A model generated the notes under the pieces. It was given only the letters and a program-made list of their open reading frames with translations, was not told the DNA's origin and made no database searches. From Psammoneis japonica (Eukaryota), in NCBI GenBank assembly GCA_008632985.1, contig QPGO01000051.1, positions 186,001-250,000 on the forward strand: a stretch of 64,000 bases of DNA, given 5' to 3'. Of the stretch, positions 25,601-60,270 are shown piece by piece (within the stretch, counting starts at the first letter, position 1; each line of letters begins with the position of its first letter). Position numbers and translations under genes: made by a program.

Positions 25601-25775
25601 TGCTTTTAGTAGTCTTGGTGATACAAGCTTATACTTCTACCAACAGGTTTGTCTTGGTGTTGCACTGCTCAAAGAGTGTGTGGAGGGGCCGAGAAAGCGG
25701 CGGCAAAACCCGGGAACGACGGCGGAAGAGATGGCATTGTGACTGCGAGAGCCCGCGCAAAATTTTTGGTCACGA

Positions 25776-28040: not shown

Positions 28041-28584
28041 CTGCCACAAAATGTGACGGCTCTCGCATCTACAGTACTGTATCACGCACCCCTTCGACCG
28101 ACCTTCGGGTCACAGGTTGGTTGATAATGTCGTAGTCTTGGTTATCCACCAGTTGCATTTATGCCTTTTGGAATGTGTCCCAAAATTCATAACTATGCCA
28201 GCTGCAAGGCATTAATGTAAAATTGCCCATATATTGTCTATGATTATACGCGAGTATTTAGTCTGAAGATAGAGGTGAGTGCCCTTACTTCTGAGAGTTA
28301 TTGCCTTTGGTACTATTTTACGTAGAAATGACAAAATTTCATTTTTCCCGCGTATTTCTTCATTGACGTCAGTCACGAGTGCTCGCTCTCAATGTCGTCA
28401 GCCCTCACGATTGTGTAGAATTCTACGCGTGACCCTACTACTGAAAATCTTCCCGCCCTTTTTTTGCTGTGACCCCTCGCTCGCTCAAGACTCAAAAATC
28501 GGTGCGACAAAGAGCAAGAAGAAACGAAAGGTGACAGAAACTCTCCAGAGACAAACAACAGCGATTCCATTTGAACTATACAGC

Positions 28585-30944
28585 ATGTTGGAAAGTAGTC
28601 TTCCTATTGCTACACGCCATGGTGTTTATAAGAAGAAGCATCATTTGCGAGCGCTCTTTCGATCGATTGCGTTTGTCGGACTGATTGGAGGATATTTTCT
28701 GTACAATGGCCTCGTAGAATCCCCTACAAATTCTACGCAGCTCCGGAGGCAACTCAGCAGCACTCGTGAATCATTCTTGGTCAACGCCGTGACTACTAGT
28801 AATACAGAAGAACAAATACCGCTGCTTCTGCAAGAGACACAAACGTCATCAAACACACATACAGACACTGTGCAAGATACTACTGAGCATATCAGCAGCA
28901 GCAGCAACTCGGGAGTTCGTCGAAAACTAGTTCAGCTCTGTTCCGAAATCGAAAAGGCCGATCCGCGATGGTTTCTGTTGTTTTATATTATTGGAGTGCT
29001 CTACATGTTTCTGGGCCTGGCTATTGTCTGCGATGAGTTCTTTGTTCCGGCACTCGAAGAGATGAGTGGAGAACGACGCTTAAATCTTAGTATGGATGTG
29101 GCTGGTGCCACCCTCATGGCGGCTGGCGGGTCGGCACCCGAGCTCTTTACGAGTTTGATTGGTACTTTTCAAGAAAGTGAAGTGGGAATTGGTACTATCG
29201 TCGGAAGTGCCGTATTCAATGTTCTCTTTGTGATTGCCATGTGTTCCATGCTGGCCAAAGAGGTATTGACTCTGACGTGGTGGCCGCTCTTTCGAGACAG
29301 TGTGTACTATGCCATTGGACTCTTGGTGCTGGCCATGTTTATCGGAGTGGTTTCTCCCGATCAAATTTTCTTGTGGGAAGCAATTGTGTTGTTTGGAATG
29401 TACCTTGGATACATTTTAATCATGGCATACAACCGAGACATCTACATGTATCTCACTGGGAATGAGCTTGTGTATCCCGGTGAAGAGGACGAAGAAAGTA
29501 AGGAGGATGGCTTTGTAGAAGAAGGAGCAGACGGGGAACGGCCCAAGAATGGTGCAGTGGGCGCCGACGGACATCGGCAAATGGCTCCGCATTTTCGTTG
29601 GCAAGGAACCTTTCGTGCCGGTATTCTCAAGCTGCTGCGTGATCCAGAGGACTGGGTCGATGCTGGTGGAGTCGGCATTGTGGCCAAGATATCCGGTGAT
29701 GTCGATCAAGTTTTCAAGGAGGTGGACTTGAATGGTGACGGCAATATTGACCGTGAAGAACTAGGTATTCTCTTTCGAAAAATGGAAATCGACATCAGCG
29801 AAGAAGAGTTGGATAAAGTCTTTGTCGAACTTGACACCAACAAGAATGGAGTGGTAAGACTGCTCTGCTAGGATTGGTTGCTTTGTCGAGTACAGCAAGT
29901 TGCTCAACCATTTTCTCTGTCTCTTTTTCTATAGATATGCGAAAAAGAATTCGAGACTTGGTATATTGCTTCGGAGGAGCGCATCCTTTCGCAGGTCAGG
30001 CATGTCTTTGATCGCTTTGATACGGATCATTCCGGTACAATTGACAAGGACGAATTAAAGGATCTTCTGCACGATCTAGATTCACGTGTAACAGACGAAG
30101 ACATTGCAGAGGCAATGGAAGTCATGTACAAGCATGGTGACCCCAACGAGATTACCTATGATGAATTTGAAGAATGGTACAAGTCCACGCTTTTGTACGA
30201 ACGACGAAAGAACGAAGTAGAAGAAGAACTCGAGGGTGTTTGGGAGAGTCTCAAGCCGCCCAAGAAGCCTGGCATTTGGAGATGGACTAAATATTTGATT
30301 GTGCTTCCCCTCGTGGCTGTCATGACCTTGACGATCCCCGACGTGCGACGACCAGGAGTCGAGAAGTGGTGTTATGTTGCTTTCATCACTTCCATTCTCC
30401 ACATTGGTGGCTACTCCTATCTCATGGTTGAGTGGGTTGAAGTTATTGGCAACACGCTTGGTATCCCTTCAGTCGTCATGGGATATACAGTTTTGGCCGC
30501 TGGAACGTCGGTTCCGGACTTGCTTTCTAGTGTCATTGTGGCTAGAAGAGGAAATGGTGACATGGCGGTCTCGAGCAGTATCGGAAGTAATATTTTCGAT
30601 ATTCTGGTTGGTCTTCCGATCCCATGGATTCTGTACACGGCGTGGCCAACAACGGCGAAAACAGTAGTGGTAAGTGAAACGGGCAAGTCTGCGTCAATGT
30701 AGTGTCTGTCGCCGTCTCTTACAATTTGTTGTTGGTCGTTCTCTTGATGTAGATTGGATCGGAAAACATCTGGATCAATATTATGGTTTTGATGGGAATG
30801 TTGGTCTTTGTTATTATTGCGGTTCATTTTCAAGGATGGAAACTGACAAAGGCGTTGGGATTTATGATGCTTTTGTTCTATATTGGATTTTTGACAATGG
30901 CAATTCTACTCGAGATCCCGTTCGAAACATGTGTGAAAGGCTGA
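28585..30944 (+). CDS. K+-dependent Na+/Ca2+ exchanger (NCKX/SLC24-like) with EF-hands in the central loop; introns about 29854-29934 and 30670-30752
   Basis: Alpha-1 repeat VCDEFFVPAL...DVAGATLMAAGGSAPELFTS...GTIVGSAVFN; alpha-2 repeat LAAGTSVPD...GDMAVSSSIGSNIFDIL; EF loops DLNGDGNIDREEL and DTDHSGTIDKDEL. Confidence 0.93.
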
Positions 30945-34434: not shown

Positions 34435-36263
34435 TTAATATATTGTGAAACATGTCAGTCCCATGACACCCATTCCTGTGTCACGCAAATTGGTTGCCAC
34501 TCCATTGCTCGTATCAATGGTGATAATACTTCCTCCCTTTATCAGAGCGTATTTTGAAACACCTGCATATAATCTTCCGTCAGGACCAAACTCAAGACTG
34601 CTTATCAGTGTCAGCGGATTCTTTGCGCGGTCCATGATGCTGGCTTTAAAAGTTGCAGCACCAGTATCCATGTCGATAGTGATCAACTCTGCATTGGCAT
34701 TGGGGCTGTTAGTGACGCCCCACATTATACCACTCTTCTTGTCGTAAGCTAGCCCTGATATTCTTCCAAAGCCGGTAGAGCCGATGTTTTTGAATTCGCC
34801 AGAGGTGGTGTTGACAATCACCAAGCTAGACGCAGGAGGGGGCGCGGATATACCTGCAACAAGAAGACTCTCGTCGATTTCAGGGACAAATGCTCCGTAC
34901 AGTATCCCATCAACAGACTCCATTCCTCCTATATCACCCTTGTCATGTTCAATAAACGACTTTGGCTTCCCGCTAGAGGGATTCAATCTAAACAATTTGG
35001 GATCATCTTCACATCTTTCACTCCACAAGACGTCATTCTCGCTATCGAATTCTAGTTCTTGTGAACATTGTGGAAAGGGTAAAATCTCACCAAGCAGTTG
35101 TGTGCGACCATCAGCAGGATCAACCATGAAGAGCTCTCGCTGATTTGTTGCGAGAAAGCGGTTGCCGCATGCATTCTCGATCTCGTACTCTTGTGTAGCG
35201 CTTACGCACTTCATCACTCGAGCAGTGGCATCGGGATTATTGAGTATCTTTCTGATATTTCTTGCCATGCAACGTTTGAAAAAGCGCCGCCTCTCTTTCC
35301 TTGCATCTCCACCATTCTTGCTTCTTCTCATACAATTGCGTAGAAATAACAGCATCTCGTCATTCAAGGAACAACCAAATTCATTGGCCATCACGTCCCT
35401 GACTCCTGTGTCACAAGAAAGAACCTTTATATTGGACTTCAAGTTTGTCAAAGGGCAGCGATCACACGCCTCGCCAACGCCATCATTATCCGAGTCTTTG
35501 GAATGTACTTTGACTTTGTACTTTGCATTATCTATGGCATTGTCTTTGTTCTGATATATTTGCAACGTGTAAATCCCGGAAAATGGAACGGGCTTGACTA
35601 CAAACTTGGGGTCCAAATTGGGACTATCCACACCGTTTGCCTGGCACTTCCTGGGAATATCGTTATCGTTGTTCCCCCACGCCACCAACTGCAGTTGTCC
35701 AAAGTTTCCTTTACCAAAGAATAAAGTCGCAACGGGATCCATCCCGCAAGTCATGCGCTTGACTTCAATCTCCACCCGCGTGCCCGCTTGAAGCCAAACT
35801 CTATAATAGTGAAAGTCGTTGTAGTATCGCAACTTGCCAGCCGTGGGGCTACTGTCGCATGCTGTTATTGTACCTTTATAGCGAACACTCATGAAGGTAT
35901 TCTAAAGTGAAAAGTAATTACATTTGAGAACGATATTCGGGTCAAATCGAAAGAGTAGTTATTTGACACCTACCTCTCCTTCGCCAATCGGTAATATGCC
36001 GCCACCAGGAGGAGCTATTGCGCCACCAGGAGGTATCAATGCTGCTCCATCTGGAGAAGGGAAAACTGGGTATTGTTCTTCTTCTTCGTCATCATTGATC
36101 CTTCTCGAAACACTAGCATCCGCGGAACCTGTGGCGAAAAGGAGACACGCAAAGTTAGATCTCGTCAGTAGTCAGTCATTCCGCTTCATCGCACCATAGA
36201 AGACTTACAACAATTCAGAGCCCAGAGGCAAAGGAACGTGATCAAACCATAGGTACGATTCAT
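34435..36263 (-). CDS. Secreted multidomain protein: PPC-like beta-sandwich, Ca-binding DxDxDG/Cys module and C-terminal beta-propeller; two 5' introns
   Basis: Exon 1 MNRTYGLITFLCLWALNC (GTAAGT donor) splices via a short exon (CSADASVSRR...GEGE) to ORF 35892-34435. DPVATLF and SGIYTL are PPC-like; DSDNDGVGEACDRCP; repeated LxxxDxxxG and GLAYD/SLEFGPDGRLY blades. Confidence 0.7.
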
Positions 36264-37559
36264 CCTCACATTAACGTGAAGCATTTGACGTTGTACTTTA
36301 TCGGTATCCACTTCTTGGCCTCCGTCGTTTCTGCTCGACAGTGCGTTTTGTGGCGCGAAATGCCAGTGGTCATTCATCATTTGGGTGGGGCTTAAATATT
36401 TAATACCGGTCATTCACGAATGTGTCTCAAGAACTCAAACAAATCATCAAGTCTATATGTTATAATAGTACTTACAGCGTGAAATATTATGGAAATAAAT
36501 GACTTTTGGACATTTGAAAACTGGTACTGACACATTGTGGACTGGACAAAATGGTTTTCGAACACTGCCACATCTCATGTTGTACAGTACAGTCAATCAA
36601 GTGTGCGCACCATTCCTCAAAACACCACACACCATGAGAATCGGAACGGCTTTTTCAACTGTTGCCAATCCTTTCAACAATGCCGACACCACCTGCCAGT
36701 CTTTGCCATCACATGAAAGCAATGTGTGTTGCTTGCATGGGGGCAATCGACCACCAACTGCGACATGAAAAAAGAGCTCCCCAGATGACCCCTCACTTGT
36801 TTTTGCTCTTTGTCATGCCTCAGTTGCACCACGGTTTTGCTTTGTTGTCTCACTCATTTTTTGATGTGATCCTCCTTGTCACTCCTGCACAGAGGCTTTT
36901 GAGCCAGTTGACACCCCGGTGAGAGAGGACAAAAATGACGACACTGCTTGCGGCTTTCCGCGCGCATCTGCTGGGATGATGTTCCGCGCTCTTCTCTTTG
37001 TCACACCACAATGACACTGTCACAAGACCAACACACCACAATCATTGTGAATGATCATCCATCTGCTGGGCTGAAATGCTTTTGCCACAAACACTTTTTT
37101 GATTGTTGTGGGATGCATGTGATTTGATGTTGCACTTTGGTGCTGGCACTCCTCTTGACAACTTTGTTCGGCATGTGTGAGTGCCCGGCTTGTCAAGACA
37201 TGCACAAACTCTTGTTTTCATTGTGATGGAGCTGCTGGCTTGTCAACTCATGCTGGCACCTGCTGAACAAAGAAAAGATTGCTGAAAAGAATTTTGGTTT
37301 TGTTTTGATCATCTCTGAAATGAGCACTGCAGAGACAAGTGCTGTTTTTGCCATTGATTGTTTTTGAATTGTGACCTTGTCATTGGAAAAAAGCCAGAAG
37401 GTGCACATTGATTTTGGGCTGATGGGTCACTGCGCACATTCACACAAAGCAACCATGATTTTGAAATGCCCACCCAAGTCCATTGGCTGTGCACCCAGTG
37501 CACAAAGCAGACTGCCAGACTGCCTGCATGCAAACACAAAGTGCAAACACCAACCAGGT

Positions 37560-39270
37560 GCAACAAACGTGCAGCATGGTGATGCAACCTGGGCGGTGAG
37601 CTCTGAGTGTTTGATCCAGGCAGGGCTTGACAAGTGAGGGTGTTTGACCAACCTGTCAAGTAAGAGCAACAAACATCTTTTGCATCTTTTTCAAACACAT
37701 CAGTTTTTCATGGTCTCTCTGTGCTGTGCTCATGCACTGAAGCTCAGTGCACTTCCCAAATCAATTTTCAGAAAACAATTTTGCCATGTCATTTGCACAT
37801 GGGGCCACCAAGGCGGACCAGCTACTCACCCCTTGTTTGTGGCGCATGAAGGCTTTTTTTGCCATGGGTGCCCGTGAGATGCTGTGTGCACTCTTTTCAC
37901 AGTTGATTTACAAGGTGAAGATTGGCCAAGGACTGGCCACCACATTGCTTCTGTTTTGCAGCCAAGTCTTGCTCCTGAAATGTGAAACACCTTTGCTGTG
38001 AATTGTGTGGCTCCATGGCTGCAAAATGTCAACAATTTGAGCACAGCTGCCCTTGATGTTGTTTGCCAAAACCATGATCATGTGTCACACAAAACAACAG
38101 ACCCAAGCCATTGGTCATGTTTCTTGTCTTGTTTTTTGGTTTTGTGGCACTGCTGTTCTTGTGTGCTTTTTTTGCAAACTCAAGCCATTTGCAAGAGGCA
38201 GCTCACTCAATTGTGTCTCTGCACACCATCAAGTGTCAGAGAGCAGTGGGAGCTGCTTTGACAATGATGCACCAGATGAGGTGCCTTCCCACATCAGATG
38301 TGGCAATTGTGCATTTTCCTCATGCCATTGTTGCAACAAGAAAAAGTGGTTTGGGGTGTGCAATGCTGTGGAAAGACATGAGGAAGAACAAAGCATCAGC
38401 CAAAGAAGGCACATGTGTTGTCATGTTGCACATGCAGTGCAACAAAGTAAAAAAATGTCTGCCATGTCACAGCTGGTTCAACAGACCCCTGGTCAGGAGC
38501 AATCATTTGTTGTTCTGTCATGAAGCTTGCTTGCAGTGCCAGCTTTCTGACTCCTGCATTCTCAAAGCAAGGGTGGATGACATGTTGAAGGTGGCTGTTC
38601 TGTGATTTGTGGTTTCTGCTGCTTGCTGTGTGATTGTTTGCCACAATCCATGATGGGGTGATGTCTCGCCACAGTTCACAAAGTGTTTGACCAGAACTTT
38701 CAAAGACAAGACACAAGCCCGCGAGATTTGTTTGTCCAGAGCATGCAAAGCACAACCACTTGTCCCTGATCCAAGAGGACCTCATCAATGACCTTGTTTG
38801 TGTGAAGCTCATGCAGAGCAGCAGAGTGGCATTGCAGTTGCAAATGAGTGCCCAGAAAGTTGCAGCGGCAGCAGAAAGAAGAGGGTGGAGCTTGCATCTC
38901 TGCTGCAGGTGCAGCCATTTGCAAGAGGAGCCAGTGTGAGTTGCTTCTCTGGAGAGGAGGCAAAAAAGTGTGTGTGTGCCTTGTGGGGTGCAGAAATGGT
39001 GGAGAGAGCAGAGGCAGGGCAGCAGCACAACTGTCTGAGATGGCTGGTGGCAAAAACAGCACACCGCCATCTGTGCGTGGGGCTGCAGCAGTCTGTGTGT
39101 TCACACTAGACTCTGCCAACATGCACAGAGCACAAAAAGCACAGGCATGATGAAAGATGATCTCAAAAAGACTCAAACAGATTGTTTGCAAACTGGGGAA
39201 ACCTGCTGCTCTCACAAGATCATTCTTGTTGGCTGGGGCTCAAACAAAGCCAGGGGTGGCCAAGCAGAGG
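37560..39270 (+). repeat. Diverged direct repeat, copy 1 (about 1.7 kb)
   Basis: Shares blocks such as cccaaatcaattttcagaaaacaattttgccatgtcattt and aagaaaaagtggtttggg with 42120-43820. Confidence 0.85.
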
Positions 39271-41562
39271 TGGCTTTCAACAGCTTTCTAGCACCCACAT
39301 TGCTCCAGCTAAATTTGGAGGAAAGTGAGTTTTGAATGATCTCTTTCAGTGCATGGTGCCAGTGTGATCTTTTCACTGTGGACAAGCAGCAATGACGAGG
39401 CGGAAACTAAAGAGCAGGAACAAACCAAGGTGTGGGTGTGGCCCACAGGACACACCACAAAGACAAAGTTCAACGTTGAACATGGCAAGTTGAATTGTGG
39501 GAGACAGGAGGCTCTGGGCAACACTGACAAAATTGCAAGAGTGCAATCACAAACAACTTGCCGCAATGGCCACTTTGCATGTTTTGAACCAAAGCAATCA
39601 AAGAAGGAGTGCAGATTGTGCCCCACAAAGCTTGTTGTGGATTGCGAGGAAGAAGCAGCGACAAGACAAGAATGATTCAATGCCAATGGAATGGTGCCAT
39701 CCTTTGAAGGTGAACAAATGAGTGAGTGACTTGATCAGCTTTGCTTGGACTCTGCTTCAGGACAGTGCACGGTTTGAGGAGAAGAGCATTTCCAGGACAT
39801 TTGCTCACCACACATTTCACCAAGTCTCTTCAGCACCAATTTTGGAAAGTGGCAGCACATGAAGTCAACCCCTTTCAGGACCCAATGCTGGCACCTTCAA
39901 CTTGATTTGACAGCACAGCCATGTGAAGAAAGTCTCCAGCAGAAATTGCAAGAATTGCTTGAATTGCAACATTGAGCAAGATCTCCGGCAAGCTCTTTCA
40001 TCAAAAGAATGTTCTCAAATTGCAGGAGACATTGGAGGATCAGGAGACATTGGAGGATCAGATGGTTCCATCTTTGATGCATTGGAAGCAGCCACACTGC
40101 ACGATCTGATGACTGCTGTGCAGCCAGACAACTGTTGAGTGTTTGCGCTGTTCTTTCAAGAGAAGGATCAGTTGCACCCACGGACAGGACTCCATTTAAA
40201 AGATTGAGAGCCGGTGTGCTGCCTTGGTTGCAGACATGTCTCTTCACAAAACTGGAGGAAATGTGCAAGAACAATGCTGAGCCAGACTCTCTCTGGATGG
40301 GTGCACACAAAGGGCAATGCAGTCACAGGATTTGTTGGCAGTTTTGGTGCTGTGTTCAGATGCTGACTTCTTTGTAAACCATGGCGTGAGAAGGCTGGCC
40401 AAAGAAAGCTGTTGAGCCATTCAAAGAGGAAGTGCTGCCTTGCTCATGTGCACAAGATCTTCTTGATGATGCTTCTTCTGTTTGCTTTCAATGACCTCAT
40501 CTCTCCCTTTCACTTTCTGCAGACAGATGGATTGAGAAGGGCAAGAAATCAATGGCACATGGCATTTCCACTTTTCAAACTCAATGAGATGCTCCAGATG
40601 ATGCAAATCTTGCTGCCCAGTGTGGGTGGCCCATTGTTTTTGCATTTTGTTTTGGTCAAAAGGTTGTCAAGAATCAAAAGAACTTTTCTCAACAGCTGTG
40701 GGAAGCTGCAAATGTCTGCACCAATGCTGGCTTTCTTCACCCAAGCTTGAGACTGGATCAGGCCTGAACAACTGCTGCTCTGTCATGTGTGAGAAACAGA
40801 CTGTCAAGCCAGCCATGACTTGCGCGAGCCTTGCAAGCACAAAATGACAAAGGCTGTCTCAATGTCATGTGGTCTTTGCTGGTGCACACATGGGTTGCTG
40901 GTGCACTCTGCATCAAGCAGCAATGAGCAACAATCAACATTGGTCACATCATGACTTGTGCAGTCAAAACATTTTGGGGGTTCATTTTGCCAGCTGAGGC
41001 ACAATTCAATGTCATGTCTTCACTGTTCACTGACAGCTGCTTCATTGTCCTCACCACCAGCTGCTGACCAACAGTGCAATCACTTGGCTCCCACAGACAA
41101 ATGATCAACAGTTTCTGCTGAATGTGAGGATGATGGGTCTTTGATGCCAATGGCCCATCCTGTTCCTTCTCCTGCCAATGCCAAGGTTGCAACTGTGGCA
41201 GTTGTTGCAGCTTTTTGACAGGCACCAGGCCCTCCCTTGAGTGACCAATGATTGCATGCTGCAGGCATTGAGAAAGCCATGCATCACTTTGCACCCATCT
41301 GGAGCTGGCTGCTCCTTGCAAAACACATTTTGGAAAGCTTTTTGGAAACCCTGATGGGATGCCATGGTTGATTGATCAAAACAAAGGCAAGGCGACTCTC
41401 CTGATTTTGTTGGCACTGCATGTTCACACGAAGCCACACAGGTCTCAGAACTGCCAGAGTGCTGCCTGCATTCTTTCAGAAGGATCTCACTCAAGCACAC
41501 AGGGACTGTTTTGTGATGTGCCATCATGATGTGGCAAACATCAATGGTCAGCGCACTTTTCC

Positions 41563-41790
41563 ATGACAAAAAACAACTGCGCACTTTCACATGACAAAAA
41601 GCAGCCATTCACCTTTGACAAAAGCTGACCACACACTTTTGCACAACAAAAAACAACCACAAACTTTTTCCTGACAAGAAACAACCACTCATCTTTACAA
41701 AAAACAACCATGCACATTTGCACAACAAGAAACAGCTGTGGACTGTTGTCAAAAAACAACCGCGCACTTTCACACAACAAAAAACAACCA
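41563..41790 (+). repeat. Degenerate minisatellite of about 25-30 bp units (acaaaaaacaacc..cacttt), roughly 8-9 copies
   Basis: Recurrent acaaaaaacaacc / acaagaaacaacc cores. Confidence 0.7.
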
Positions 41791-42119
41791 TCAATTCAAA
41801 TTTGTCCATTGTGCAGGGCGTCACACAAATTTCACAGTGCTGCTGTGAGACCCAGGCCTCAGAGTCTGTCCAGCCAAACACTGTCATGCATGGGGGTGTG
41901 ACCACACCTGCGTCACACAGGCTTTTCTGATGATGTCACATGGCACACCCGCGGTGTTTGTCCAAACACATTGGTGTGCATTGTGATGGCACATTGCTTG
42001 ATGGACGACATTGGTCACATGATTCAAACTTGCAGCACGCAAAGCAATGCAACATGAATGAAACAGCAACAGCAACACCATGAGAATGACCTCACCATGA
42101 TGATTTTTTGCCATGGCAC

Positions 42120-43820
42120 AGCACGATGCAACCAGCGCAATGCAACCTGGGTGAGCCCTGAGTGTTTGATGCTGGTGGAGCTGAGCACTGCTTTGTGCAG
42201 TGGCTGCACACTCACCTCAGCCCTTCAGTCAAACAAGTGAGCAGGTGTTTGATGAACTTGGGCAGTCAGAGCAACAAGCAAATTTTGCATCTTTCTCAAA
42301 GAAACCACGTGTGTGCCCACATCATGGTTTCTCTGCTGAGACTGGCTCAAGCTCAGCATGCACTCCCCAAATCAATTTTCAGAAAACAATTTTGCCATGT
42401 CATTTTCCTGGGCCCACCATGGCCAGCAACTCATCCCTTGTTTGTGGCACATGAAGGCTCTTTTTCTGACCATGAATGCCAATGAGATGTTGTGCACTTT
42501 CTTCACAGTCCATTCACAAGGTGGAATGAAGAAGAACAGCCAAGGACTGGCTCTCACATTGCTCTGTTTTGTGCTGGCAAAAAGTCGCTCCTCCTGAAAC
42601 ACCTTTGCCATGATTTGTGTGGTTCCTCAGCTGAAAAAACATCAATGATTGGAGCACAGCTGCCCTCAATGTTGTCTGCCAAAACTGTGATCTCATGTGT
42701 CATGTGAGACAACAGAGCCAAGCCACTGGTCGTGTCTCTCATGTTGTTTTTTGCTGCTGTTCTTGCACATTTTTTGTGAGCTCAAGCCACTCATGAGGCA
42801 GCTCACTCAAATGTCTCTGTGCACTGTCAAGTGTTGGAGAGCAGTGGGAGAGCCATTCTGACAACATCACACCAGATGAGATGCCTTTCCATGTCAGATG
42901 CGGCATTTGCACTCTCCTCATGTCATTGTCATGGCAAGAAAAAGTGGTTTGGGAGGTGTGCTGTGGGGAGACACACACAAAAAAAACAGAGCATTGGCTG
43001 AAGAGAGGCATGTGTTGCCATGCTGCCCATGCAACACTCCAAAGCAGAAAACTTCTGCCATGCCACAGCCAACTCCAAAGACCCCTGGTCAGGGGTGTTT
43101 GTTTGTTGTTCTGCCTTGAAGCTTGCTTGCTGCACCGGCTTTCTGACTGCATTTTTTGAAGCATGGGTGGCTTGCACATTTTTGAAGGTGGCTGTTGTGC
43201 AATCTGCTGTGTCCACTGCCCCCCACCATGATTGTTTGCCACAATGTGTGGTGGTGTTGGCTGGTTTGCCACAGCTCACAAAATGTTTGACACCANNNNN
43301 NNNNNNNNNNNNNNNNNNNNNNNNNNNNNNNNNNNNNNNNNNNNNNNNNNNNNNNNNNNNNNNNNNNNNNNNNNNNNNNNNNNNNNNNNNNNNNNNNNNN
43401 NNNNNNNNNNNNNNNNNNNNNNNNNNNNNNNNNNNNNNNNNNNNNNNNNNNNNNNNNNNNNNNNNNNNNNNNNNNNNNNNNNNNNNNNNNNNNNNNNNNN
43501 NNNNNNNNNNNNNNNNNNNNNNNNNNNNNNNNNNNNNNNNNNNNNNNNNNNNNNNNNNNNNNNNNNNNNNNNNNNNNNNNNNNNNNNNNNNNNNNNNNNN
43601 NNNNNNNNNNNNNNNNNNNNNNNNNNNNNNNNNNNNNNNNNNNNNNNNNNNNNNNNNNNNNNNNNNNNNNNNNNNNNNNNNNNNNNNNNNNNNNNNNNNN
43701 NNNNNNNNNNNNNNNNNNNNNCAACAAAAGCACAGGTGAGATGAAAGACAATCTCAAAAGGACTCAAACTTGTTGGCAGGAGCTCAAACAAAGCGGGGCA
43801 CATGCCAGCCAAGCGGAGGG
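42120..43820 (+). repeat. Diverged direct repeat, copy 2 (spans the N gap)
   Basis: Homology to 37560-39270 holds at an offset of about 4.6 kb on both sides of the gap (43722 matches 39131). Confidence 0.85.
43296..43721. other. Assembly gap (N run)
   Basis: Ns in sequence. Confidence 1.
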
Positions 43821-45013
43821 GGCGGGGAAATCAGTGCTCCTTGGGAGGATGACTCCAGATGCTGATCCAAGGACTTGCCTTCTCACCTCTTTCTTAGAAA
43901 CACATTGAGCACAGGTGTCGTGATGGTCAGAGAGCCAAAGGAACTCTGTGTCAAGACAACCTTCAGGATCACATGTTTGCTGGTGATGGTTTTGGGGCTC
44001 ACAGCTCGCATGATGGCAAGCACTCATCACAACGACGGCTGCAACAACTCTCCTCTGATTGGATGTCTAGAAACAGCAAAAAACAAAGATCTTCAGTGAG
44101 AAATTTGCTGAAAGAAAACAGAATTTGTGGCGCGCACATCATGTCAAGAAGACTCGCTGTTCAACGTCGCTGTGTTTTGCATCTCCCCCACTCCATCACA
44201 ATTGTGCTCATCGCTCAAGTCGGGGAATCAGGTGCAGCTGCTGGTGGGGGGCAATTCTGCATCATCTCTGTGCAAATGATCCAACAGAAAGACAAAGACA
44301 CCATCAGTGCGACGCTGCACTCTCGAGGCAAAAAGGAGTCAGCGAAGAGCGAGAAGAATGTGCAGAGTGCAAGACCACTTGCAGTTCGGTTGTGCCACTT
44401 TGTTGCAAGAGGTGAGCAACAATTTTGCAACTCATGCTGCCTGCTTCTGCAAGGCTCCCCGCCACGGTCCTACTCACAGTCTCCCTCACAGTCTCCTCAC
44501 GCTGGTTCTGCCTGGCAATCACTCTGTCATGCAGCGCCAATCGAAGCTGCTGGTTTCTGCTGAGTGATTGAGAGATTGTGGCACTCTGTTTGCCAACGGA
44601 GGTCACACATGCAGAGTCATTGTCATGTGTGCTGACCTTGGATGACTCGTCGAAGCACGGCGAGGCGTTTGGTGTTGTTGGTTTGTTGCTGCGGCTTCGG
44701 CTTCCTTTTTGGCTGGCCGGTGCTTCCGAGAACTTGTTCGTTGGTTGGGTCTTGCTTGCTCCGCTTTGCTGCTGCCGCTTCTTTTGGTGTGCTCTGTCCC
44801 TGGCTTTCCTTTCAGCCTCTTCGTCTGGTTCCATGAGAAGAAGAAGCTTGCAACCTCACCTTGTTGTCGTTGGTTCGATGAATGAACTTTTCAGAAAAAC
44901 AGCGCAGTGCGGGTGCAGGTACTACAAAATAACGTGGGAAGATACAGTACGTCGTAGCTCTCCGTAGAAATCCTACGTAAAACAATCCTCAGCGAACAGA
45001 ATTCTCACACAAA

Positions 45014-45150
45014 TGTTTCACGAGCGTTTCACTGGCGTTTCACGGGCGTTTCAAAACGAATTTTTTTCGTGTATTTTGTGCGTAGTCTGACAAAAAAAAA
45101 TGTCAGACGGGTGTCAGACGGATGTCAGACGGATGTCAGACCAGGTCAGA
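45014..45150. repeat. Two adjacent 11-bp tandem arrays (gcgtttcacgg-like x4; gatgtcagacg-like x5), likely TE subterminal repeats
   Basis: gtttcacgagcgtttcactggcgtttcacgggcgtttca and tgtcagacgggtgtcagacggatgtcagacggatgtcagaccaggtcaga. Confidence 0.8.
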
Positions 45151-45362
45151 AAATTTAATTCAAACGCTGGGGAGAGATGTATAGTATTACTTCTACGTGG
45201 AACCTACGTTCCATACAGTATCTGCAGAGAATCAAACATCACCATGACCTCATCTCACCGCAGAAACACTATTATTTCGACCTCCTTTTTGGTCACAACA
45301 ACATTCATCTGCGGGTGTGCTGAACCGGAATGCATATTTTAATTGAGACGCCATGTAAAGCA

Positions 45363-46268
45363 ATGATGTTGAGAAGAATTCTTCTGCTGCTAACTGCTGT
45401 GTCGGCGTCGCCCACATACCCTTCTGACCCTCCAATGTTGATTGATAAAGTAGTTCCGTTTCAGCGATGGACGGAGCACGGCTCGTATGTGACGGGCTTG
45501 ATATTCACCTCTCCCGCAACGACTAGCAATATGGGAATTAGTTGGACCCGCGGCATAACCAATCATGATCCATACTGGTTCAGCGTAGATGGAGACTCAC
45601 CGCAAGTTCTGTATTGGCCGAGCAAAGGTGAGGGAGAGAATTTTCTAAGCAACTGGAACGTTGATACAAAAACTGGGGGGACGCGTCAGTACGATGCTGC
45701 CATGTTTACTCCGAATACGCCTAATTCGTATGGCTTGAAGAAGGAAATGCATGTTGTTCGATTAGAGATAAACGACAAGTACGGATCGACGAATGGAGTA
45801 CACTTTGTGGCTACAGACACGCAAGTTGTTTGGACTCCCACGAAACATCTCTCGAGAATGAGAGCCAAGTTCGACCGATGGGTCAGGTCCAAAGGACACA
45901 AAGCTCAAGCCGTAATCGAGGTGTTGCAGAATAGAATCATCAACCAAAACCCTGGAGGAAACATTGGCAACCAAAACATTCAAGTGGCCGAGTTTCCCAC
46001 GTATCATAACGGTTGTCTGCTCGTCACATTTTATCGTCAATTGAGCAATACGTTGACGTATCCCCCAGAGATCGACCCATCGTATTACTGCGAACCTGGC
46101 ACTCCTTGTGCGCCACCACCATATACTCAGCGAGTCATTGAGTTTGGGGTGGAGGAGTACATTCAGTATGAAAAGTGTCGAGGAAAGAGCAAACTCAAGA
46201 AAACGGGTGTTGATCGGAAACGATACATCAAAGACTCTCGACGAGTAGCCTCATTATATGGATACTGA
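45363..46268 (+). CDS. Secreted hypothetical protein, intronless
   Basis: About 300-aa ORF with signal peptide MMLRRILLLLTAVSA and normal codon usage; no family recognised. Confidence 0.65.
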   Translation: MMLRRILLLLTAVSASPTYPSDPPMLIDKVVPFQRWTEHGSYVTGLIFTSPATTSNMGISWTRGITNHDPYWFSVDGDSPQVLYWPSKGEGENFLSNWNVDTKTGGTRQYDAAMFTPNTPNSYGLKKEMHVVRLEINDKYGSTNGVHFVATDTQVVWTPTKHLSRMRAKFDRWVRSKGHKAQAVIEVLQNRIINQNPGGNIGNQNIQVAEFPTYHNGCLLVTFYRQLSNTLTYPPEIDPSYYCEPGTPCAPPPYTQRVIEFGVEEYIQYEKCRGKSKLKKTGVDRKRYIKDSRRVASLYGY

Positions 46269-46675
46269 GGACGTGGGAGCTTGAAGCGAATGTGGAATAC
46301 GGCACCAACACGCTTGCAGAGTACTTCTAGGTCAGGTTGCTCCGGATCCTGTCCCTTCTGCCGAATTGTAATACAACTTTGTGAACCTTGCGTAATATCT
46401 CGCACCTCGTCATGAATTCGCAAGGTATATATAGCTAACATCTACTCTAGCTAGTAGAGAGAACTACCCTCCAAGCTTCGGAAAAGCGCTAACCGAAGTA
46501 TTCATACCGGTATGCGGCGCATGCAGGCAACTTGAACGCGAGCTATCATGGCATCTCGGACCTCGTGCTCTGACCTCTGACTCATCAGTCGAACGTTAGT
46601 GCGATGACAAAACAACTCACGATGGCGGCATGAGAAGGGGGCAAGAGCAAATGCAACAACTCATTCAAACTCGGC

Positions 46676-47343
46676 GAATGCAAAATAGAATAATGATAAA
46701 GAGAAAGGCATTGCTCTCGTTCTTTTCGTTCATGGCCTTATTCCTCATACCAGCGAGTGGGTTATCCTCCCAAAAAAGACATGGTCGAGTGACAAAGTCT
46801 GCTGTAAGACAACCTCGGCTGAAACTACCAGACTCGATTGAGGAAATGCTGTTTCCAGCAGAAACTGTTGAAGACGTTGACCCAGAGAAAACTCTCGCAG
46901 AATTCTAGTTTCAAGACGATAATGTAAAAACGGCTCAAGCTAGTATGGAACTGTATCTGAATCAATGGGCTTTCAAGCTTGCTACGGACGATCAAAACGG
47001 ATTGTCTACTCCAATCACAGCTTCTACCTTTTTGAAACAAAGTTCAACCGAGTCTCGTCAAGTCATCATGTTTCGACCGCCTCCCAGATACTTATCGTAT
47101 AACGAGCAAAAGTCCATGGAAAAAGGTCAGCTTCCGGACCGCAAAGGAGCCAAACTCAACTCAAAGAGTCCCGGGGGTGTTGAGCTGCATTTGGCAGTCG
47201 AAGGTGACATTCCATCGCTGAAAGCCAAAAGATGTGGAGTTGATTCTGATGCAATCATCAAAGAATCCAGTGAGCGCGCTGTCATCAGGAGATTGACTGA
47301 AGCTTGTCGGATCTGGCAAAAAGTGCGAGCAATGAAAACATGA
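46676..47343 (+). CDS. Hypothetical protein with signal peptide; frameshift near 46900
   Basis: ALLSFFSFMALFLIPASGLS leader; continuation ELYLNQWAFKLATDD...FRPPPRYLS...PGGVE...IIKESSERAVIRRL. Confidence 0.6.
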
Positions 47344-48566
47344 GCGTTGATGATCACTCGGGAGTGTTTATGCTGGAAGTAGTAGGTCTCGAGTGTGTCT
47401 TTTGAAGGTGCAGGTCCTTGATATGATGCCAGCCCTACCGGTAGAGCCCTGTCATACAGAGGATGCCAAATCTCACAAGAAAGCAAGCGGGCAGTATTCT
47501 TCAACCTAAGCGGGGGGATTCGTTTGCACAGTATCTTTTTTCCAACAGAATCATTGCTAGTGAGATTACTGACCGGCACTATATTATATAATGGTTTGAT
47601 GATGAAAATTTCAAGATTTTCTCATGGAAGGACTCACGATGATAAAAGCTGGAATGTGTGCTAGGTTCACAGCCTACCCAGAAGCGTAATCTCTGTCACC
47701 TCCAACCTCTGCGAAGAAACTGGTCAAAGTCGGGAAGTCTACTCTAGTTTATGAAAAGCTTTGTCACAATGGACGGTTACTGTGTCAAATTACTTAATCT
47801 TGTCCTGCGTCAGAAACAAACGGCGAGAATGCTAGGATTGCGATTCCGGCAAGTATCGGGATGTATCTTGAGCAAAGGCTGAGTGATAGTATCCAGAGCC
47901 ACCAAACAGATTGATCAATTGATTCGAAGCCAGGCATCCATCGCTGGATCAACGTCTTTACGAAACTATGCAACGTCCTTTTCCACTCGCGAATTCGAGC
48001 GAGAGCAGGATTGTTTCAATTGTCAATCGGAGAAATGCCTAAGCCATTGCAAAGAATAGGCCTAAACTAGATAACATTCATTGCGAACAAAAGCTGCTAT
48101 CCATCTGAACCTCTCTTCTCCACGAACAAATCGGAGATTGCTATCACCAAGCTCAAACTTGCCATTAACCAGTGAAATTCGAGAAATGTGAGCGGGATTG
48201 TTGGCTTTCCTACGGGATTTCTGCGGGCACCGGTGCGCTTCCTACTCAGTCACGAATGACAGTGCCAGCCTCATCTTAAAAAGCGATGACCGTGTTGCTC
48301 ACGACGCGTGCAATTCTAACTTTTGTTGCATTGAAATAATCTCACCAATCTCCATCTTTACTGACACCATTACACCCATTATGATTGCACACATTGTGCT
48401 AATTATTCCATCACTGTCGATCTCCCCTGCTGCGCGCATTTCACAGCAAGCAGAACCACACAGCAAGAACTTTCTTTGGGCGACCTTTTGCTGGGATTCT
48501 TCCTGCATTGCTGTGAATGAGATCAGCTGGATGATTCGAGCTCTCTGGTCCTTTGTCCTTGCAGGC

Positions 48567-48848
48567 NNNNNNNNNNNNNNNNNNNNNNNNNNNNNNNNNN
48601 NNNNNNNNNNNNNNNNNNNNNNNNNNNNNNNNNNNNNNNNNNNNNNNNNNNNNNNNNNNNNNNNNNNNNNNNNNNNNNNNNNNNNNNNNNNNNNNNNNNN
48701 NNNNNNNNNNNNNNNNNNNNNNNNNNNNNNNNNNNNNNNNNNNNNNNNNNNNNNNNNNNNNNNNNNNNNNNNNNNNNNNNNNNNNNNNNNNNNNNNNNNN
48801 NNNNNNNNNNNNNNNNNNNNNNNNNNNNNNNNNNNNNNNNNNNNNNNN
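48567..48848. other. Assembly gap (N run)
   Basis: Ns in sequence. Confidence 1.
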
Positions 48849-51225
48849 GCTCCAAGAGCTCTTCACATGCTTTTGCGCACCCATGTTGGATTGGGTGCAA
48901 ACTGCAACAGCTGTTGAGCTGGTTGACACTGTGGACAACAACCCTGCTGCAGTGGTGGAAGCAGCTTTTGAAGTGGGCAATGCCAACAAGGAGCCTTGTG
49001 ATGTTTCAAATGATCCTGCCTGGTGCTGTGGCCACAGACAATGCTCCAGCTGATGCAAAGGTGAGAGCACTCCTGTTGCTGTGGCAGAGGAGCATGTGGT
49101 TGAAGGCTTGGATGGTTTTGCAGCAGTCACATGACATGGGTGGCTGGCACAACAATTGATGAAGAAGCACCCATTCCCGCTGCTGATGTCAAGGAACAAC
49201 CTGTTGTTGCTGATGCCATGAATGACCCAGCAGCTGCCGCCCACCACAATGCCAAGGAAGGTTCAAGCAACAGCTGGGTTTGGAGAAGCAACAGATGAAA
49301 TGTAGAACCTGTGGCAGAAAATGGCAATGGAGTTCAGGCAAACATGCTGAAGCTTCTTCAAGGCAGAGTCAAGTTGGCAGCAGGTGTGTCTCACAACATT
49401 TTGTTGTTTTCTTTAGATTTGCAATTGTGCCAGTTTTGACATTTTGTTTTCAAGCAGCACCAAGATTTGAATTGTTCAGGAATCAATGCACTCAGCATCC
49501 AATGACAAGGGAGGCTTCCACAGTGTTTGAGAAATCATGCACAGTTGTTTTGATTTGGTCAATGGGAGTCATCCTCCACACTCTCCAACATGGCCTCTCT
49601 GGGTGTCTCAAGCCATGGCACAGTGAGCTCAACAGCTCCACACCCACACCACATGCAAAGTTGCGGACAGTGTGACCCTGGCTGTGGTGGTCACTTGGGT
49701 TCATTCTTGACCAGTGCTCTCAAAACCATGCACTGCTGCTGAGACATTCTGTGCAACCTCTTCAGGCTCAGGACAACGGTGCTTGTTGTTCTTTTTTGAC
49801 TAAAACCAAATCCACTCACACACATGCCATGAGAAAAGACAACATGCCAGCATCAACCCTTGATCTCTTCAGATGTCTCAACCCCAATGGCAATGAAGCC
49901 ATTCTTCCTCTCCCACTGCTGTGTGCTGCAGGGGCCCAAATGTTGCCAGTGTTCCTCTGGCATCAACATCAGGCAAGCATGGAAAGAGCACTTGACTGTG
50001 GGATTTCATCTGTGCACTCCAGCCTCCAGCTTGAGCAACCATGACGCAGGCACATCAGCTCAGCAGCACCACCTTGTGGGAAAGCTTGAGAGCCACAGTG
50101 GTTGCACTGAAAATGGACATTTTTCAAACACCTCCTTGATGCCACTGCCAGAAGCCCCGATGACATGCTTTGTGGTAGAGCACAAAGGTCAAATCCATTC
50201 TTCAAACACAGCCATCTTTTCCTTGTTGAGCATCAACTTTGAAAGTGCACAATCTGATCCCATCAGCTGCGACTGTGCAAGCACCGCTGTTGCTGCCAGT
50301 TGCTTGCTTTTTTTTCTGGACATGGGGCAACAAGCCTGTTGCAGCACACACAAGCCTGCCATGCCAAGCCACAACAAGCAGCACACTCCTTGTGAGAAAA
50401 GCTGCACCCTCTTGGTGTGATGTGTCTGGCAATTTTTGAAAATTCTGCTCAAAAGGGAGAGATGACATCACCAAGTCAGAACCACACAAAGCCAGACATT
50501 TGGTCTCCTTTGTGGAGCAATTGGGGAGGAGTTTCCCAGGAGAAGCCAGAGTGAGAGCTCCAGCAAGCCAGGGCAAAACACTTCGTGGCTGACAATGTGC
50601 GCTCCTGGGTCATTTTTTCTTTGCTGAGGTCTGGCACTTGCTTTGAAGCTGCAAATTGGCAACTTTGCAGTGTCCAAGAATGACGCCAAAATGTGTGCAA
50701 GTTCATGCTACATTCTTTGCTGCAACTCAAGAGTGCTCGCGCTGTTTTTGAAAGGCGCTCTTGTTTTTCTTTCCCGCTGGCAACAGCCAGTTGACTCAAG
50801 TGTTGCGCCACCACTCAAAGCCTCAAGGAATTGCCCAGGAATGACAGAGAGTCCACCAAAGCTGCTGCCTGACCAGGGATGGAAACAAAAAGCAGGTGAG
50901 CAACAACAAGAGGCAGCTGCCCACGCACCAAGGGGCAATTGCGGGCAAGGAAAGTGCGTCATTTCTGCTTGATCTGCGGGGTTCTTGGATCATTTCTCCC
51001 AACCTGAAACCCCCCAAAATGCTGCTTGAGCCAGTGCTCATTGCACATGACATGGAACAAGCATCAACTGCTGTTGCACGAGCAACAAGTTTTCCAATTT
51101 CTCAAAAGGGATCAACTGCACAGCATCAACAACGTCCATCCTCCTGTCCATCCTTGCTTCAACTCGTCTTGCATTCGCCCCAGCAGAGGCTGAGCAGATG
51201 CGTGGGATGTGCGATGCATCAGACC
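48849..51225. mobile_element. TpA/CpG-depleted degenerate TE-derived sequence, class unclear
   Basis: Same dinucleotide signature as the other islands; ORFs almost Tyr-free. Confidence 0.6.
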
Positions 51226-53078
51226 CACAGGAAACGAGAATCCACGGAATCACACGGAATGTGCACTTTTTCTCCTCATTCCGTTTGTTTGTTCCGTAAA
51301 AAATGAGGCCTTTTTTCGTGCTCCGTTTTGGACTTTTCCAAGGAATGTGCCCTCATGTTCCAGATGGAAGTGTCAGCAATCGGAGTGCGATGGTCACATT
51401 CCGCTCCGATCACCAAGACAAGTGCACTCCGTTTTCGTGCGGAGTGTGAACTTGAAACTGGAACAACCGCTTCATTCCGTGCACAGACTGAGGCCAACGG
51501 ATTTTGTTTTCAACAATGTGCCATTTGTTGGCACAGAGCATGTGTTGAGGCAAAAAATTGCAACGAACATTGTCCACATTGGCCGGTGTCACTGCTCTGT
51601 TGTTCAATGCTCTCTGTTCGTCCCTCTGTGATGATTCAAGCAACCAGTGTCAAGAATGACGGTGAGATGTTTGATGCTGCAATGCTGCAAGACCGCACAT
51701 TGTCGTCATGGCATGCACTGCATGTTGTTGTCGTCTTTGATCGTGGAAAATGTTGTGCAGGATGTTCACATCTTTGTTTTTATTTTAACTCGTTGTGCAG
51801 CAAAGAAGACAGCACAACAATGATGGCTCAAATGTTCAATTGACATTGGAGTGAGAACCCCAAAAGGATTGTGCATTTTGTCATTGTTTTGACATTGCAA
51901 CATGTCATTGACAAATTAAGGACTTTTAAAATGAACAACTCAAATCACACATTTGAAGTGATTGCATCAAAAACAAAGAAGAAAACATTTGATGACCATG
52001 TGCTGATGTGTTTGACAGCACGTGGAAAGATGTCGTTGAATTCTACGTGACTTTGATTGCTCTGCAGAAGGTGCGATGATTTGCACCAGAGGAGAGGATT
52101 CGCGTCGCAGCCACATCTTCTTGCACTTCTTCTCGTTTGCTCTCATAAAAAAACGCAACACAGCCAGCGGCAGAGCGCATCTGAAGCAACAACGGCAAAC
52201 AATGGGAAGAACAACAGGATGAGTGAGTGGTGTGATTTGTGACAATTGCAGCACACACGATGGCAAGCCATGACGTGATTGTGCAGCACTTCAAAGGTCG
52301 CTTGCACTCACATTTTCTTCTCTCTTTTTGTGGTTGGGGTTTGTTTCTGTTTCCAGAGTCCAGAGGGCTCTGGTTCCAAGTTTGGCAAAAGAGACGTCTG
52401 GACAGCTGCACCCATCAACGGCCCGCAAGTGCAAGCTTCGTTTTGCTTTTTCTGTCACACTGAACGCGTTGCTCACTTTTGGCTTTGTCACATGTTGCTC
52501 ATGTTTAGGAAAGGTTGAAGTGCCCCTTGTCATCCATTGGGCACCCAAGACAATCAAAAGAAGAAATGCATTGTTCTGAAATTCGGCTGAGTGGTGCAGC
52601 AAAGCGATCGGTCGTGCAAATGCAGGCAGAGCACCAGCGTGGGCGGAGCAGGAGTTCTTGCTGTGCAATGGAAATGCAGCAGCACAATGATCCTATTTTA
52701 GAATTTCACTTGATTCCGCAACGTATTCCGCATCACAAGCTCTAGAGACAACATGCCACATTCCAGCCACAACACGGAAAGTGAAGCCATTGCATTCCGT
52801 GTCATTGGTTGAGCGAAAGGAATCCACAAACGGAATGTGGCAAAAGGAACAGCAAATGGAATTTAAAATAAATGGCCTCTTTCTAACAAACGAAATGGTG
52901 AAACGTAATATGCAAATTGCGTCTTGGGTACGGAATGAGTACACACGTCGGAATGTGATGCGGATTTTGATGAGGCTTTTTTCGTTTTGCACCCTGTCAT
53001 TCACATTCCGTTTTGAGGCTTTTCGCGACGGAGTCGCGCACACATTCCGTGCGATTCCGTGGATTCTCGTTTCCTGTG
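51226..53078. mobile_element. Non-autonomous TIR DNA transposon of about 1.85 kb with 38-bp inverted repeats and dispersed CATTCCG subterminal motifs
   Basis: 51226-51263 cacaggaaacgagaatccacggaatcacacggaatgtg versus the reverse complement of 53041-53078, one mismatch (CG vs CA). Confidence 0.8.
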
Positions 53079-53244
53079 TGTGGCCCCGCATTGCGGTGCC
53101 GCAAACATGCCGATCTGCGTCTTCAAGCTGTTGGAGATAAAATGGGCAGAACTCAAGAGTTTATCATTGTCTACGCATAAATATGTCTGATTCTGGGTCA
53201 CAATTAGATCGCTTAACTTTGGAAGAAACGGGTTGCAGCGCTCC

Positions 53245-59901: not shown

Positions 59902-60270
59902 AACACGGAAGCACAAAAAGTGGCAATTTGGGACTAAACCCTAAAGTCGATAAATTGTTGGTAGGTTTGAAGGACAGGTGTTACTTTCCACACAATGTAG
60001 AATACCGTATTGTAACAGCTCTCGAAGCGTGAAACTGTTGTGGATGTGGTAGCTCACTTTCTTGTGGAGGGAGAGGAATCCCTTGACACGGCCAGACAGC
60101 ACCAGCACGTCGAAACCATCATCGACAACGTCGTTTCCAACTCCTCCACAACCCTGTTGGACTGCACGCAGAACACACAGAAGATGCCGCATCCAATGAC
60201 ATCAACAGGTGCCCATTCTGTTTCAAAGTGGACACCAGCAGCGTTGAGTGTTTTGCATTGATGCTGCAGC

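Follow-up and report, generated by a model that had tools for sequence, protein, structure and literature searches.

Intergenic blocks nearly devoid of TpA in a diatom genome point to a region-targeted conversion of TpA to TpG or CpA

Five intergenic blocks and their dinucleotide composition

The region studied here is a 64,000-nucleotide stretch of the Psammoneis japonica genome (assembly GCA_008632985.1, contig QPGO01000051.1, positions 186,001 to 250,000 of the forward strand), which we refer to as the window and in which coordinates are counted from the first base. Among the host genes it encodes are those for a proteasome alpha subunit, a flavin monooxygenase, an FNR-type reductase, a Na/Ca exchanger with EF hands, an anthranilate/para-aminobenzoate (PABA) synthase and a PPR protein. 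Between such ordinary genes lie five sharp-edged blocks, all of them intergenic and together amounting to about 18.9 kb, from which the dinucleotide TpA (TA) has almost vanished. We argue below that they are probably the footprint of a mutational process directed at particular regions of the genome. The open reading frame (ORF) for the synthase shares 78-83% identity with proteins from Nitzschia, Cylindrotheca, Fragilariopsis and Pseudo-nitzschia and with related sequences from the environment, which identifies the host as a raphid pennate diatom, not Bigelowiella, and agrees with the diatom host assumed in an earlier note on this DNA.

The limits of the blocks were set by the positions of TAs. 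Block 1 spans 4111-6037 (3 TA and 27 CG in the 1524 bases of 4514-6037; dinucleotide odds ratio, rho, 0.03 for TA and 0.31 for CG) and block 2 spans 24602-25606 (3 TA and 18 CG in the 863 bases of 24602-25464; rho TA 0.05, CG 0.34). Block 3, the 8.3-kb region flagged at the outset, occupies 36589-44920 between bounding TAs at 36588 and 44920, and its 7906 non-N bases hold 14 TA, 106 CG, 924 TG and 904 CA (rho TA 0.03, CG 0.23, CA/TG 1.85/1.86). Block 4 spans 48405-52694, including an N gap at 48567-48848, and block 5 spans 60051-63378. The edges are sharp within one to two hundred bases; at the left edge of block 5, for instance, ten TAs in 59935-60050 are followed by 274 bases without any.

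Across the five blocks TA makes up 0.15-0.35% of dinucleotides, against 4.23% in the rest of the window (hereafter host DNA), CG makes up 1.3-2.1% against 5.32%, and TG and CA together make up 21-23% against 14.7%. The combined share of TA and CG thus falls from 9.55% in host DNA to 1.5-2.4%. The pyrimidine-purine steps as a whole (TA, CG, TG and CA) account for 0.234-0.247 of dinucleotides in the blocks and 0.243 in host DNA, and the GC content is 0.48-0.50 against 0.47. This constancy of the pyrimidine-purine share, together with the unchanged GC content, indicates that TA and CG were turned into TG and CA by transitions. Expressed as odds ratios, TA stands at 0.02-0.05 and CA/TG at 1.6-1.9 in the blocks, and CG at 0.97 in host DNA. 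AA shows no depletion, with a rho of 1.17-1.37 in the blocks and 1.14 in host DNA, and AT is only slightly lower (0.78-0.88 against 0.95). We also observed a raised rho for GC (1.16-1.34 against 1.02), and the raised GC and lowered AT are possibly a by-product of TAC>TGC and GTA>GCA conversions.

The signature is real and far beyond chance. The 57 windows of 500 bp that lie wholly within blocks contain 0-6 TAs (median 1), compared with 9-44 (median 20) in the 172 host windows. In the flagged region most 500-bp windows have 0-4 TA, 0-8 CG and TG/CA odds ratios of about 1.9-2.1, and in the rest of the window 500 bp typically hold about 20 TA and 27 CG. The longest TA-free runs measure 1073, 1321 and 2199 bases (the last takes in a 426-N gap), and even a run of 1073 bases has a probability of 10^-20 at the host TA frequency. 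In six-frame translations Tyr falls to 0.1% in the blocks from 2.4% in host DNA, Cys rises to 6.3% from 3.7% and His to 5.2% from 3.4%, and TGA provides 889 of the 947 stop codons as opposed to 1767 of 3395 in the host. These figures agree well with the earlier note. Its hand counts of 1 TA and no CG in 38041-38640 (where we also find 87 TG and 68 CA) and of 12 TA and 14 CG in the host gene segment 58501-58800 prove exact; TA positions recover every one of the sharp-edged stretches to which it had ascribed the same signature; and its descriptions of frames poor in Tyr, rich in Cys and His and ending in TGA, and of AA and AT remaining common without a general GC shift, are matched by the counts given above.

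Repeat architecture and contents of the blocks

Block 3 contains two long direct repeats of about 1.55 kb, both in the forward orientation and detected with blastn, such as would be expected of a long terminal repeat (LTR) retrotransposon. Copy A lies at 37630-39190 and copy B, which is broken by an N gap at 43296-43721, at 42233-43778. The aligned parts are 37630-38691 with 42233-43291 (73.5% identity over 1107 columns) and 39135-39190 with 43726-43778 (82% identity). Tandem Repeats Finder additionally reports a degenerate tandem array at 41628-41790 within the same block (period 28, 6.1 copies, 63% matches). In block 4 a unit at 51223-53081 is bounded by a pair of 41-nt inverted repeats (arms 51223-51263 and 53041-53081, 95% complementary), the 22-nt core of which has exactly two occurrences in the window, against none expected. 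The summed depth of contigs from a public sequencing run, here called X1, is 527-761 over 51042-52892, roughly ten times the baseline of about 50-60 seen elsewhere, and the unit accordingly appears to be multi-copy in that run. Both N gaps of the window also fall in blocks. The direct repeats, the inverted-repeat pair, the multi-copy depth and the placement of the gaps are all in favor of a repeat origin of the blocks. TA returns at about 52694, while still some 390 bases within the inverted-repeat unit, and this position suggests that the target is a chromatin-like domain rather than a strict element boundary. The motif CACGGAATG is repeated near the ends of this unit (51240-53051), as are variants of it (GGAATC and CATTCCGT among them), in both orientations; four exact matches were found where 0.9 are expected, an arrangement reminiscent of the subterminal repeats of DNA transposons.

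Searches for coding capacity in the blocks returned little. Neither the 44 ORFs of at least 45 amino acids in 39.15-41.4 kb, searched at E <= 5, nor the remaining ORFs of block 3 had a Pfam match to the gag/pol domains of LTR elements (reverse transcriptase, RNase H, integrase and protease). A plausible-looking ORF on the reverse strand at 44307-44855 was compared in a word-indexed homology search with 90 candidates, none of which reached E <= 0.01. The median three-base periodicity of the purine/pyrimidine pattern is 0.07 in the blocks (n=55), 0.06 in shuffled sequence and 0.105 in the host (n=142), and no block ORF stands out by a score based on purine/pyrimidine dicodons. As TGA is the sole stop codon left in such DNA, ORFs of 150-260 amino acids are expected by chance. 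Self-comparison of the window after recoding to purines and pyrimidines revealed no hidden homology between blocks or between blocks and host; it recovered only the known repeat pair, tandem duplications and one pair of host paralogs. Rfam and tRNA scans of the window likewise gave no matches.

Several features stand beside the blocks. Within the TA-free DNA of block 5 there are two tandem duplications, at 60271-60643 (197 bp x 1.9, 98% identity) and 62293-62432 (74 bp x 1.9, 95%); being young and lying inside TA-free DNA, these must have arisen after the TA loss. The same block is flanked by tandem paralogs without a Pfam family (58275-59387 and 63338-64000), and lies directly upstream of the second; their homology begins at 58310/63608 and they are near-identical over 58447-58729 and 63718-64000. 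Just beyond the right edge of block 3, in DNA of normal composition, are two 11-bp tandem arrays, at 45015-45053 (GTTTCACGGGC, 3.5 copies) and 45100-45141 (ATGTCAGACGG, 3.8 copies). Finally, the adjacent ORFs at 28279-29871 and 29935-30702 each encode a Na/Ca-exchanger domain with EF hands, and are probably a single gene split by a short intron or a frame change.

Conversion in place, its strand symmetry and its separation from CpG decay

The direct repeats of block 3 offer a view of how the present composition arose. Their 1091 aligned bases contain 253 mismatches (166 transitions and 87 transversions), and recoding to purines and pyrimidines raises their identity from 73.5% to 88.7% (973 columns). 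Among the 102 dinucleotides that differ at both positions between the copies, 41 are exchanges of TG for CA or the reverse, and each of the other double-transition swaps (AT/GC, AC/GT, AA/GG, AG/GA, TT/CC and TC/CT) is found 0-4 times. Such swaps are what a self-complementary ancestral step, TA or CG, would leave behind if it were resolved separately in each copy, and a family that had always been free of TA would not generate them. The conversion must therefore have occurred in place, after the duplication. With TA and CG at host densities, conversion of both following the duplication should have left about 52 discordant sites, and conversion of CG alone about 29; the observed 41, lying between the two, favors conversion of both without proving it.

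Comparison of the window with independently built contigs of X1 adds a measure of polarity. The substitutions from window to contig number 182 for A>G, 171 for C>T, 163 for G>A and 182 for T>C, against 24-41 for each type of transversion. Forty of the 958 differences were listed individually and 34 of these lie in blocks; among these 34, the X1 contigs have TA at four and CG at seven sites where the window has TG or CA, five differences remove a CG, and three pairs are TG/CA swaps. At position 51960 all five aligned contigs carry TA and the window carries TG. In 39439-40617 we noticed short pieces (about 30-120 bases) that match contigs of normal TA and CG content from X1 and a second run, X2; TA and CG abound in the loose ends of those contigs. 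The X1/X2 sample may thus harbor, elsewhere, a relative of this segment that is unmutated. X2 itself lacks coverage in most bins of the blocks, to which we attach no weight.

These data bear on the suggestion that there was no mutational process at all, and that the block families have always been poor in TA and CG through intrinsic or selected composition, or that the pattern was produced by sequencing or assembly. We did not recover an unmutated relative, and the fact that both N gaps fall within them would also suit such an account. However, the TG/CA swaps between repeat copies and between contigs need TA or CG intermediates, the pyrimidine-purine share is constant, and the other contigs retain TA or CG at the 11 listed sites. 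With regard to an artefact, which the earlier note had named as something that would undo its reading, X1 contains 85% of the sampled words of 37000-43200, and its contigs show no other letter than the window's over 948 bases (43722-44669) and 1530 bases (49366-50902), both within blocks. These exact matches over 0.9-1.5 kb, repeating the block sequence, exclude an artefact of the assembler, since miscalls at about 100 sites per kilobase-scale stretch, whether random or induced by base modification, could not repeat. We therefore consider an intrinsic composition or an artefact very unlikely. As an aside, the X1 contigs over 35000-53500 are of two kinds: some match the window exactly and have a depth of about 30, and the others are about 10% diverged and have a depth of about 55-60. 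The diverged kind also spans host genes (45664-46244, for instance, where 57 letters differ), which suggests a second haplotype, a subgenome or a close strain.

The strands are treated alike. The 924 TG and 904 CA of block 3 are balanced, and a runs test for strand-coordinated tracts of TG or CA did not distinguish the blocks (z from -0.1 to -3.1) from segments of host DNA (z from +0.5 to -3.2). This balance fits independent conversions on either DNA strand. It also speaks to an alternative in which the transcripts of an element are subject to A-to-I editing by an ADAR- or ADAT-like enzyme and then reverse transcribed, so that copies arrive already edited. The LTR-like direct repeats of block 3 would be consistent with an element that moves through RNA, and ADARs do prefer a U 5' of the edited A (bioRxiv 10.64898/2026.01.13.699255). 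Yet editing of the copied strand yields TA>TG on one strand only, and equal TG and CA without strand tracts beyond the host level rule out one-strand RNA editing fixed by reverse transcription. Moreover, the LTRs of a single insertion are identical at integration, whereas here they differ by the TG/CA swaps described above; the TA loss also spans the inverted-repeat-bounded unit; and the comparable mutations in the alga Bigelowiella natans, taken up below, arise in resident DNA. The arrival of pre-edited copies is thus the most improbable of explanations in our estimation.

The loss of TA can further be separated from the loss of CG. In the cores of the large blocks both are depleted (rho TA 0.03-0.04, rho CG 0.09-0.15): the block 3 core at 37001-43295 has 11 TA and 48 CG in 6295 bases (rho TA 0.03, CG 0.14, TG/CA 1.93), and the cores of block 4 (48849-50600; rho TA 0.04, CG 0.09) and block 5 (60301-62900; rho TA 0.03, CG 0.15) are similar. 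Around them lie rims and flanks with rho TA of at most 0.06 and rho CG of 0.56-0.80. These comprise the left rim of block 3 at 36589-37000 (no TA and 15 CG in 412 bases; rho CG 0.60), its right rim at 44001-44920 (2 TA and 39 CG in 920 bases; rho TA 0.04, CG 0.64), the CG-keeping part of block 4 at 50601-52694 (rho TA 0.06, CG 0.59) and the rims of block 5 at 60051-60300 and 62901-63378 (rho TA 0.0; rho CG 0.56 and 0.80). The loss of TA in these parts amounts to 94-100%, but that of CG to only about 20-45%. Erasure of TA therefore extends over a larger domain than erasure of CG and is not dependent on it, and a TA loss separate from CpG decay is supported. CG depletion with gain of TpG and CpA, as found in the cores, is what deamination of 5-methylcytosine (5mC) produces, and accounts for the CG>TG/CA half of the signature there, but it is unable to remove TA and the TA loss reaches into the CG-keeping rims. 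Diatom transposable elements (TEs) do carry methylation, according to PMC9998398.

Two further explanations would tie the losses together. In the first, one deaminase complex with activity on A as well as C would be responsible for the conversion of TA and of CG alike, and rims and cores would differ only by dose. Both losses indeed give the same products and share the same blocks and outer limits, and an ADAT2 of amphioxus that edits A and C in DNA is cited in bioRxiv 10.64898/2026.01.13.699255. The disparity between TA and CG loss in the rims is hard to reconcile with it, however; the B. natans regions are almost without G:C>A:T mutation according to the same source, and 5mC deamination in methylated diatom repeats (PMC9998398) already accounts for the CG loss. 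This makes a shared machinery quite unlikely.

The second is error-prone patch repair, in which lesions within the silenced blocks, such as the T:G mismatch left when 5mC is deaminated, would attract a non-canonical form of mismatch repair that employs a Pol-eta-type polymerase. Polymerases of this type introduce A>G changes at WA motifs, an example being the A:T phase of somatic hypermutation in antibody genes. The blocks that have lost TA do also show CpG decay, and the repeat pair bears 84 other transitions beside the 87 transversions, that is, a general mutational load. Against this, the blocks show no depletion of AA, the remaining WA motif, and TA loss is complete in rims in which CG has been kept and hence independent of CpG deamination. 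The GC-biased hypermutations of B. natans, in addition, are all at TpA. We accordingly hold patch repair to be unlikely.

The few surviving TAs offer a hint as to local context. Among the 38 that remain in the blocks, only one is preceded by A and only one followed by T, whereas 27% and 30% of host TAs have these neighbors (P = 8e-5 and 3e-5); relative to the context of block TG/CA steps the deficits have P = 2e-4 (5' A) and 6e-4 (3' T). On their 3' side the survivors carry A in 17 cases, G in 13, C in seven and T in one. Since TA reads the same on both strands, the two deficits can be expressed as a single rule, namely that the A in 5'-TAT-3' is converted most efficiently. The implied order of conversion, TAT > TAC > TAG, TAA, and thus a preference for 5'-TAY-3', is a lead and not a result.

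Taken together, we consider it probable that a region-targeted process converting TpA to TpG or CpA on either strand has acted on old, silenced, non-coding repeat or foreign insertions, with CpG decay as a separate accompaniment. The earlier note had posited just such a second, targeted process in addition to CpG decay, and the mass balance of dinucleotides, the swaps between repeats, the CG-keeping rims and the near-equality of TG and CA all speak for it. The blocks would then be insertions of this kind that were rewritten in place at the DNA level by two processes. The first, an A:T to G:C change at TpA, would strike either strand with equal probability and span each block from edge to edge, and about 92-96% of the TA that the host frequency predicts would have been lost to it. 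The second would be ordinary CpG decay to TpG/CpA, most likely by deamination of 5mC, which would be strong only in the block cores. The chemistry of the first might be the deamination of adenine to hypoxanthine, which is read as G, in the context 5'-TA-3', by a candidate enzyme directed to a chromatin domain and not to a sequence, perhaps with a preference for a pyrimidine 3' of the A. In every known tRNA substrate of TadA and ADAT2/3 the edited A34 follows a U, which makes this class a natural candidate. A tRNA-A34-type deaminase (ADAT2/3 or TadA-like) would hence be our leading suggestion for the enzyme, though a tentative one that we offer with rather more doubt than conviction.

Several observations weigh against this interpretation. 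None of the 176 distinct block ORFs reaches the Pfam cut-off, the 16 weak rows all falling below the curated cut-offs, and the case for a foreign or transposon origin is one of structure and copy number. That the blocks are TEs in the strict sense is consequently no more than a possibility: the direct repeats, the 41-nt inverted-repeat pair and the multi-copy depth are transposon-like, but the Pfam result lends it nothing and one TA-free edge lies within the inverted-repeat unit, not at its end. The 41 TG/CA swaps could in principle be explained by ancestral CG alone, and the ancestral TA and CG densities of the block families were assumed to be host-like. The context preference is drawn from 38 surviving TAs, and new mutations may be among them. 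X1 is perhaps the window's own source sample, and an effect of DNA preparation common to both may have contributed. Furthermore, in 73 environmental, mostly diatom loci around the anthranilate/PABA synthase gene (422,583 bases) the signature appeared in none of 3901 windows; the 50 of these that are low in TA are all GC-rich (0.55-0.75) with a TG/CA rho of at most 1.41. The environmental contigs are short and gene-centered, and thus provide weak evidence on the spread of the process.

Relationship to known mutators and implications

The closest parallel comes from the nuclear genome of B. natans, for which TpA hypermutation arising de novo in integrated viral DNA has been described (Mettrop et al., bioRxiv 10.64898/2026.01.13.699255). 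In 15 mutation-accumulation lines, 231 of the 302 nuclear single-nucleotide mutations fell in two integrated viral regions; 230 of these 231 were A>G or T>C, all of them at TpA and giving TpG or CpA. The authors further delineated 124 clusters of 1-kb windows poor in TpA and rich in CpA+TpG, which are enriched for transposon-related domains and unannotated genes, and they proposed the hypermutation to be a genome defense and an ADAT2-like protein to be the editor. When their thresholds are applied to our window, 16 of the 64 1-kb windows pass, in runs of 7, 4, 3 and 2. Our full-text literature searches did not bring to light any description of TpA erasure for a diatom or another stramenopile, and this preprint was the only relevant paper. 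The novelty of the process that the earlier note had implied is therefore reduced, the same TpA to TpG/CpA hypermutation having been reported in 2026 for B. natans (bioRxiv 10.64898/2026.01.13.699255).

The two cases have in common the conversion of TpA to TpG or CpA on either strand, the sharp delimitation of the affected regions and the clusters poor in TpA and rich in CpA+TpG. They also differ in several respects. B. natans is a chlorarachniophyte (Rhizaria), whereas the present host is a diatom (Stramenopiles). The mutations of the former were observed de novo, whereas the diatom process is read from its sequence footprint. The B. natans region derived from a nucleocytoplasmic large DNA virus (NCLDV) has a rho TA of 0.45, whereas the diatom blocks are saturated, at 0.02-0.05. 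The targets in the diatom are intergenic blocks of 1-8 kb without a recognizable viral or TE protein, and their cores add a loss of CpG; the preprint mentions neither CpG nor diatoms. What the window contributes beyond B. natans is thus the saturation, the extent of the TA domain past that of the CpG loss, and a possible TAY preference.

The blocks also invite comparison with repeat-induced point mutation (RIP) of fungi, similarly a region-targeted, dinucleotide-specific transition mutator of repeated or foreign DNA with a sharp-edged footprint. In ascomycetes RIP converts CpA to TpA and raises both TA and AT content, whereas our blocks lose TA with GC unchanged, and the opposite direction of the two, as pointed out before, is evident from the removal of TA here. 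The RIP signature of C>T at CpA, TpA excess and AT enrichment is accordingly absent, given a rho TA of 0.02-0.05, a CA/TG rho of 1.6-1.9 and a GC content of 0.48-0.50. The DNMT4 of diatoms is reported to be related to RID and to be of unknown function (PMC9998398). Nor did we find the one-strand A>G pattern of ADAR-type editing, block 3 having 924 TG against 904 CA and strand runs at the host level. The APOBEC3/AID proteins deaminate C in single-stranded DNA and leave strand-biased G>A changes and AT enrichment in retroelements and viruses. The likeness lies in a host-encoded, context-specific defense by base editing; unlike the action of those enzymes, the change in the blocks is from A:T to G:C, strand-symmetric and in resident DNA.

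It is possible, with a likelihood that we would place only a little short of even, that the TpA erasers of B. natans and of the diatom are one and the same ancient, chromatin-directed DNA adenine-editing defense, common to Stramenopiles and Rhizaria and perhaps present more widely, which is independent of cytosine methylation, prefers 5'-TAY-3' and is able to reach saturation. If this were true, invading DNA at saturation would be stripped of Tyr codons altogether, of two of the three stop codons and of any target or promoter motif that contains TA. Editing of resident DNA from A:T to G:C as a defense has only just been proposed, for a single rhizarian alga and without an identified enzyme, and a footprint at saturation in a diatom would make the process more than the curiosity of one species. 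It would be one able to inactivate insertions completely, over a wider domain than CpG decay. The genetically tractable diatoms would then become a system for finding the enzyme, with TAY as a testable context rule and with CRISPR tools, methylomes and mutation-accumulation lines at hand. Because such blocks are invisible to protein-domain searches, the annotation of repeats in diatom genomes may need searches that are recoded to purines and pyrimidines or that restore TA and CG.

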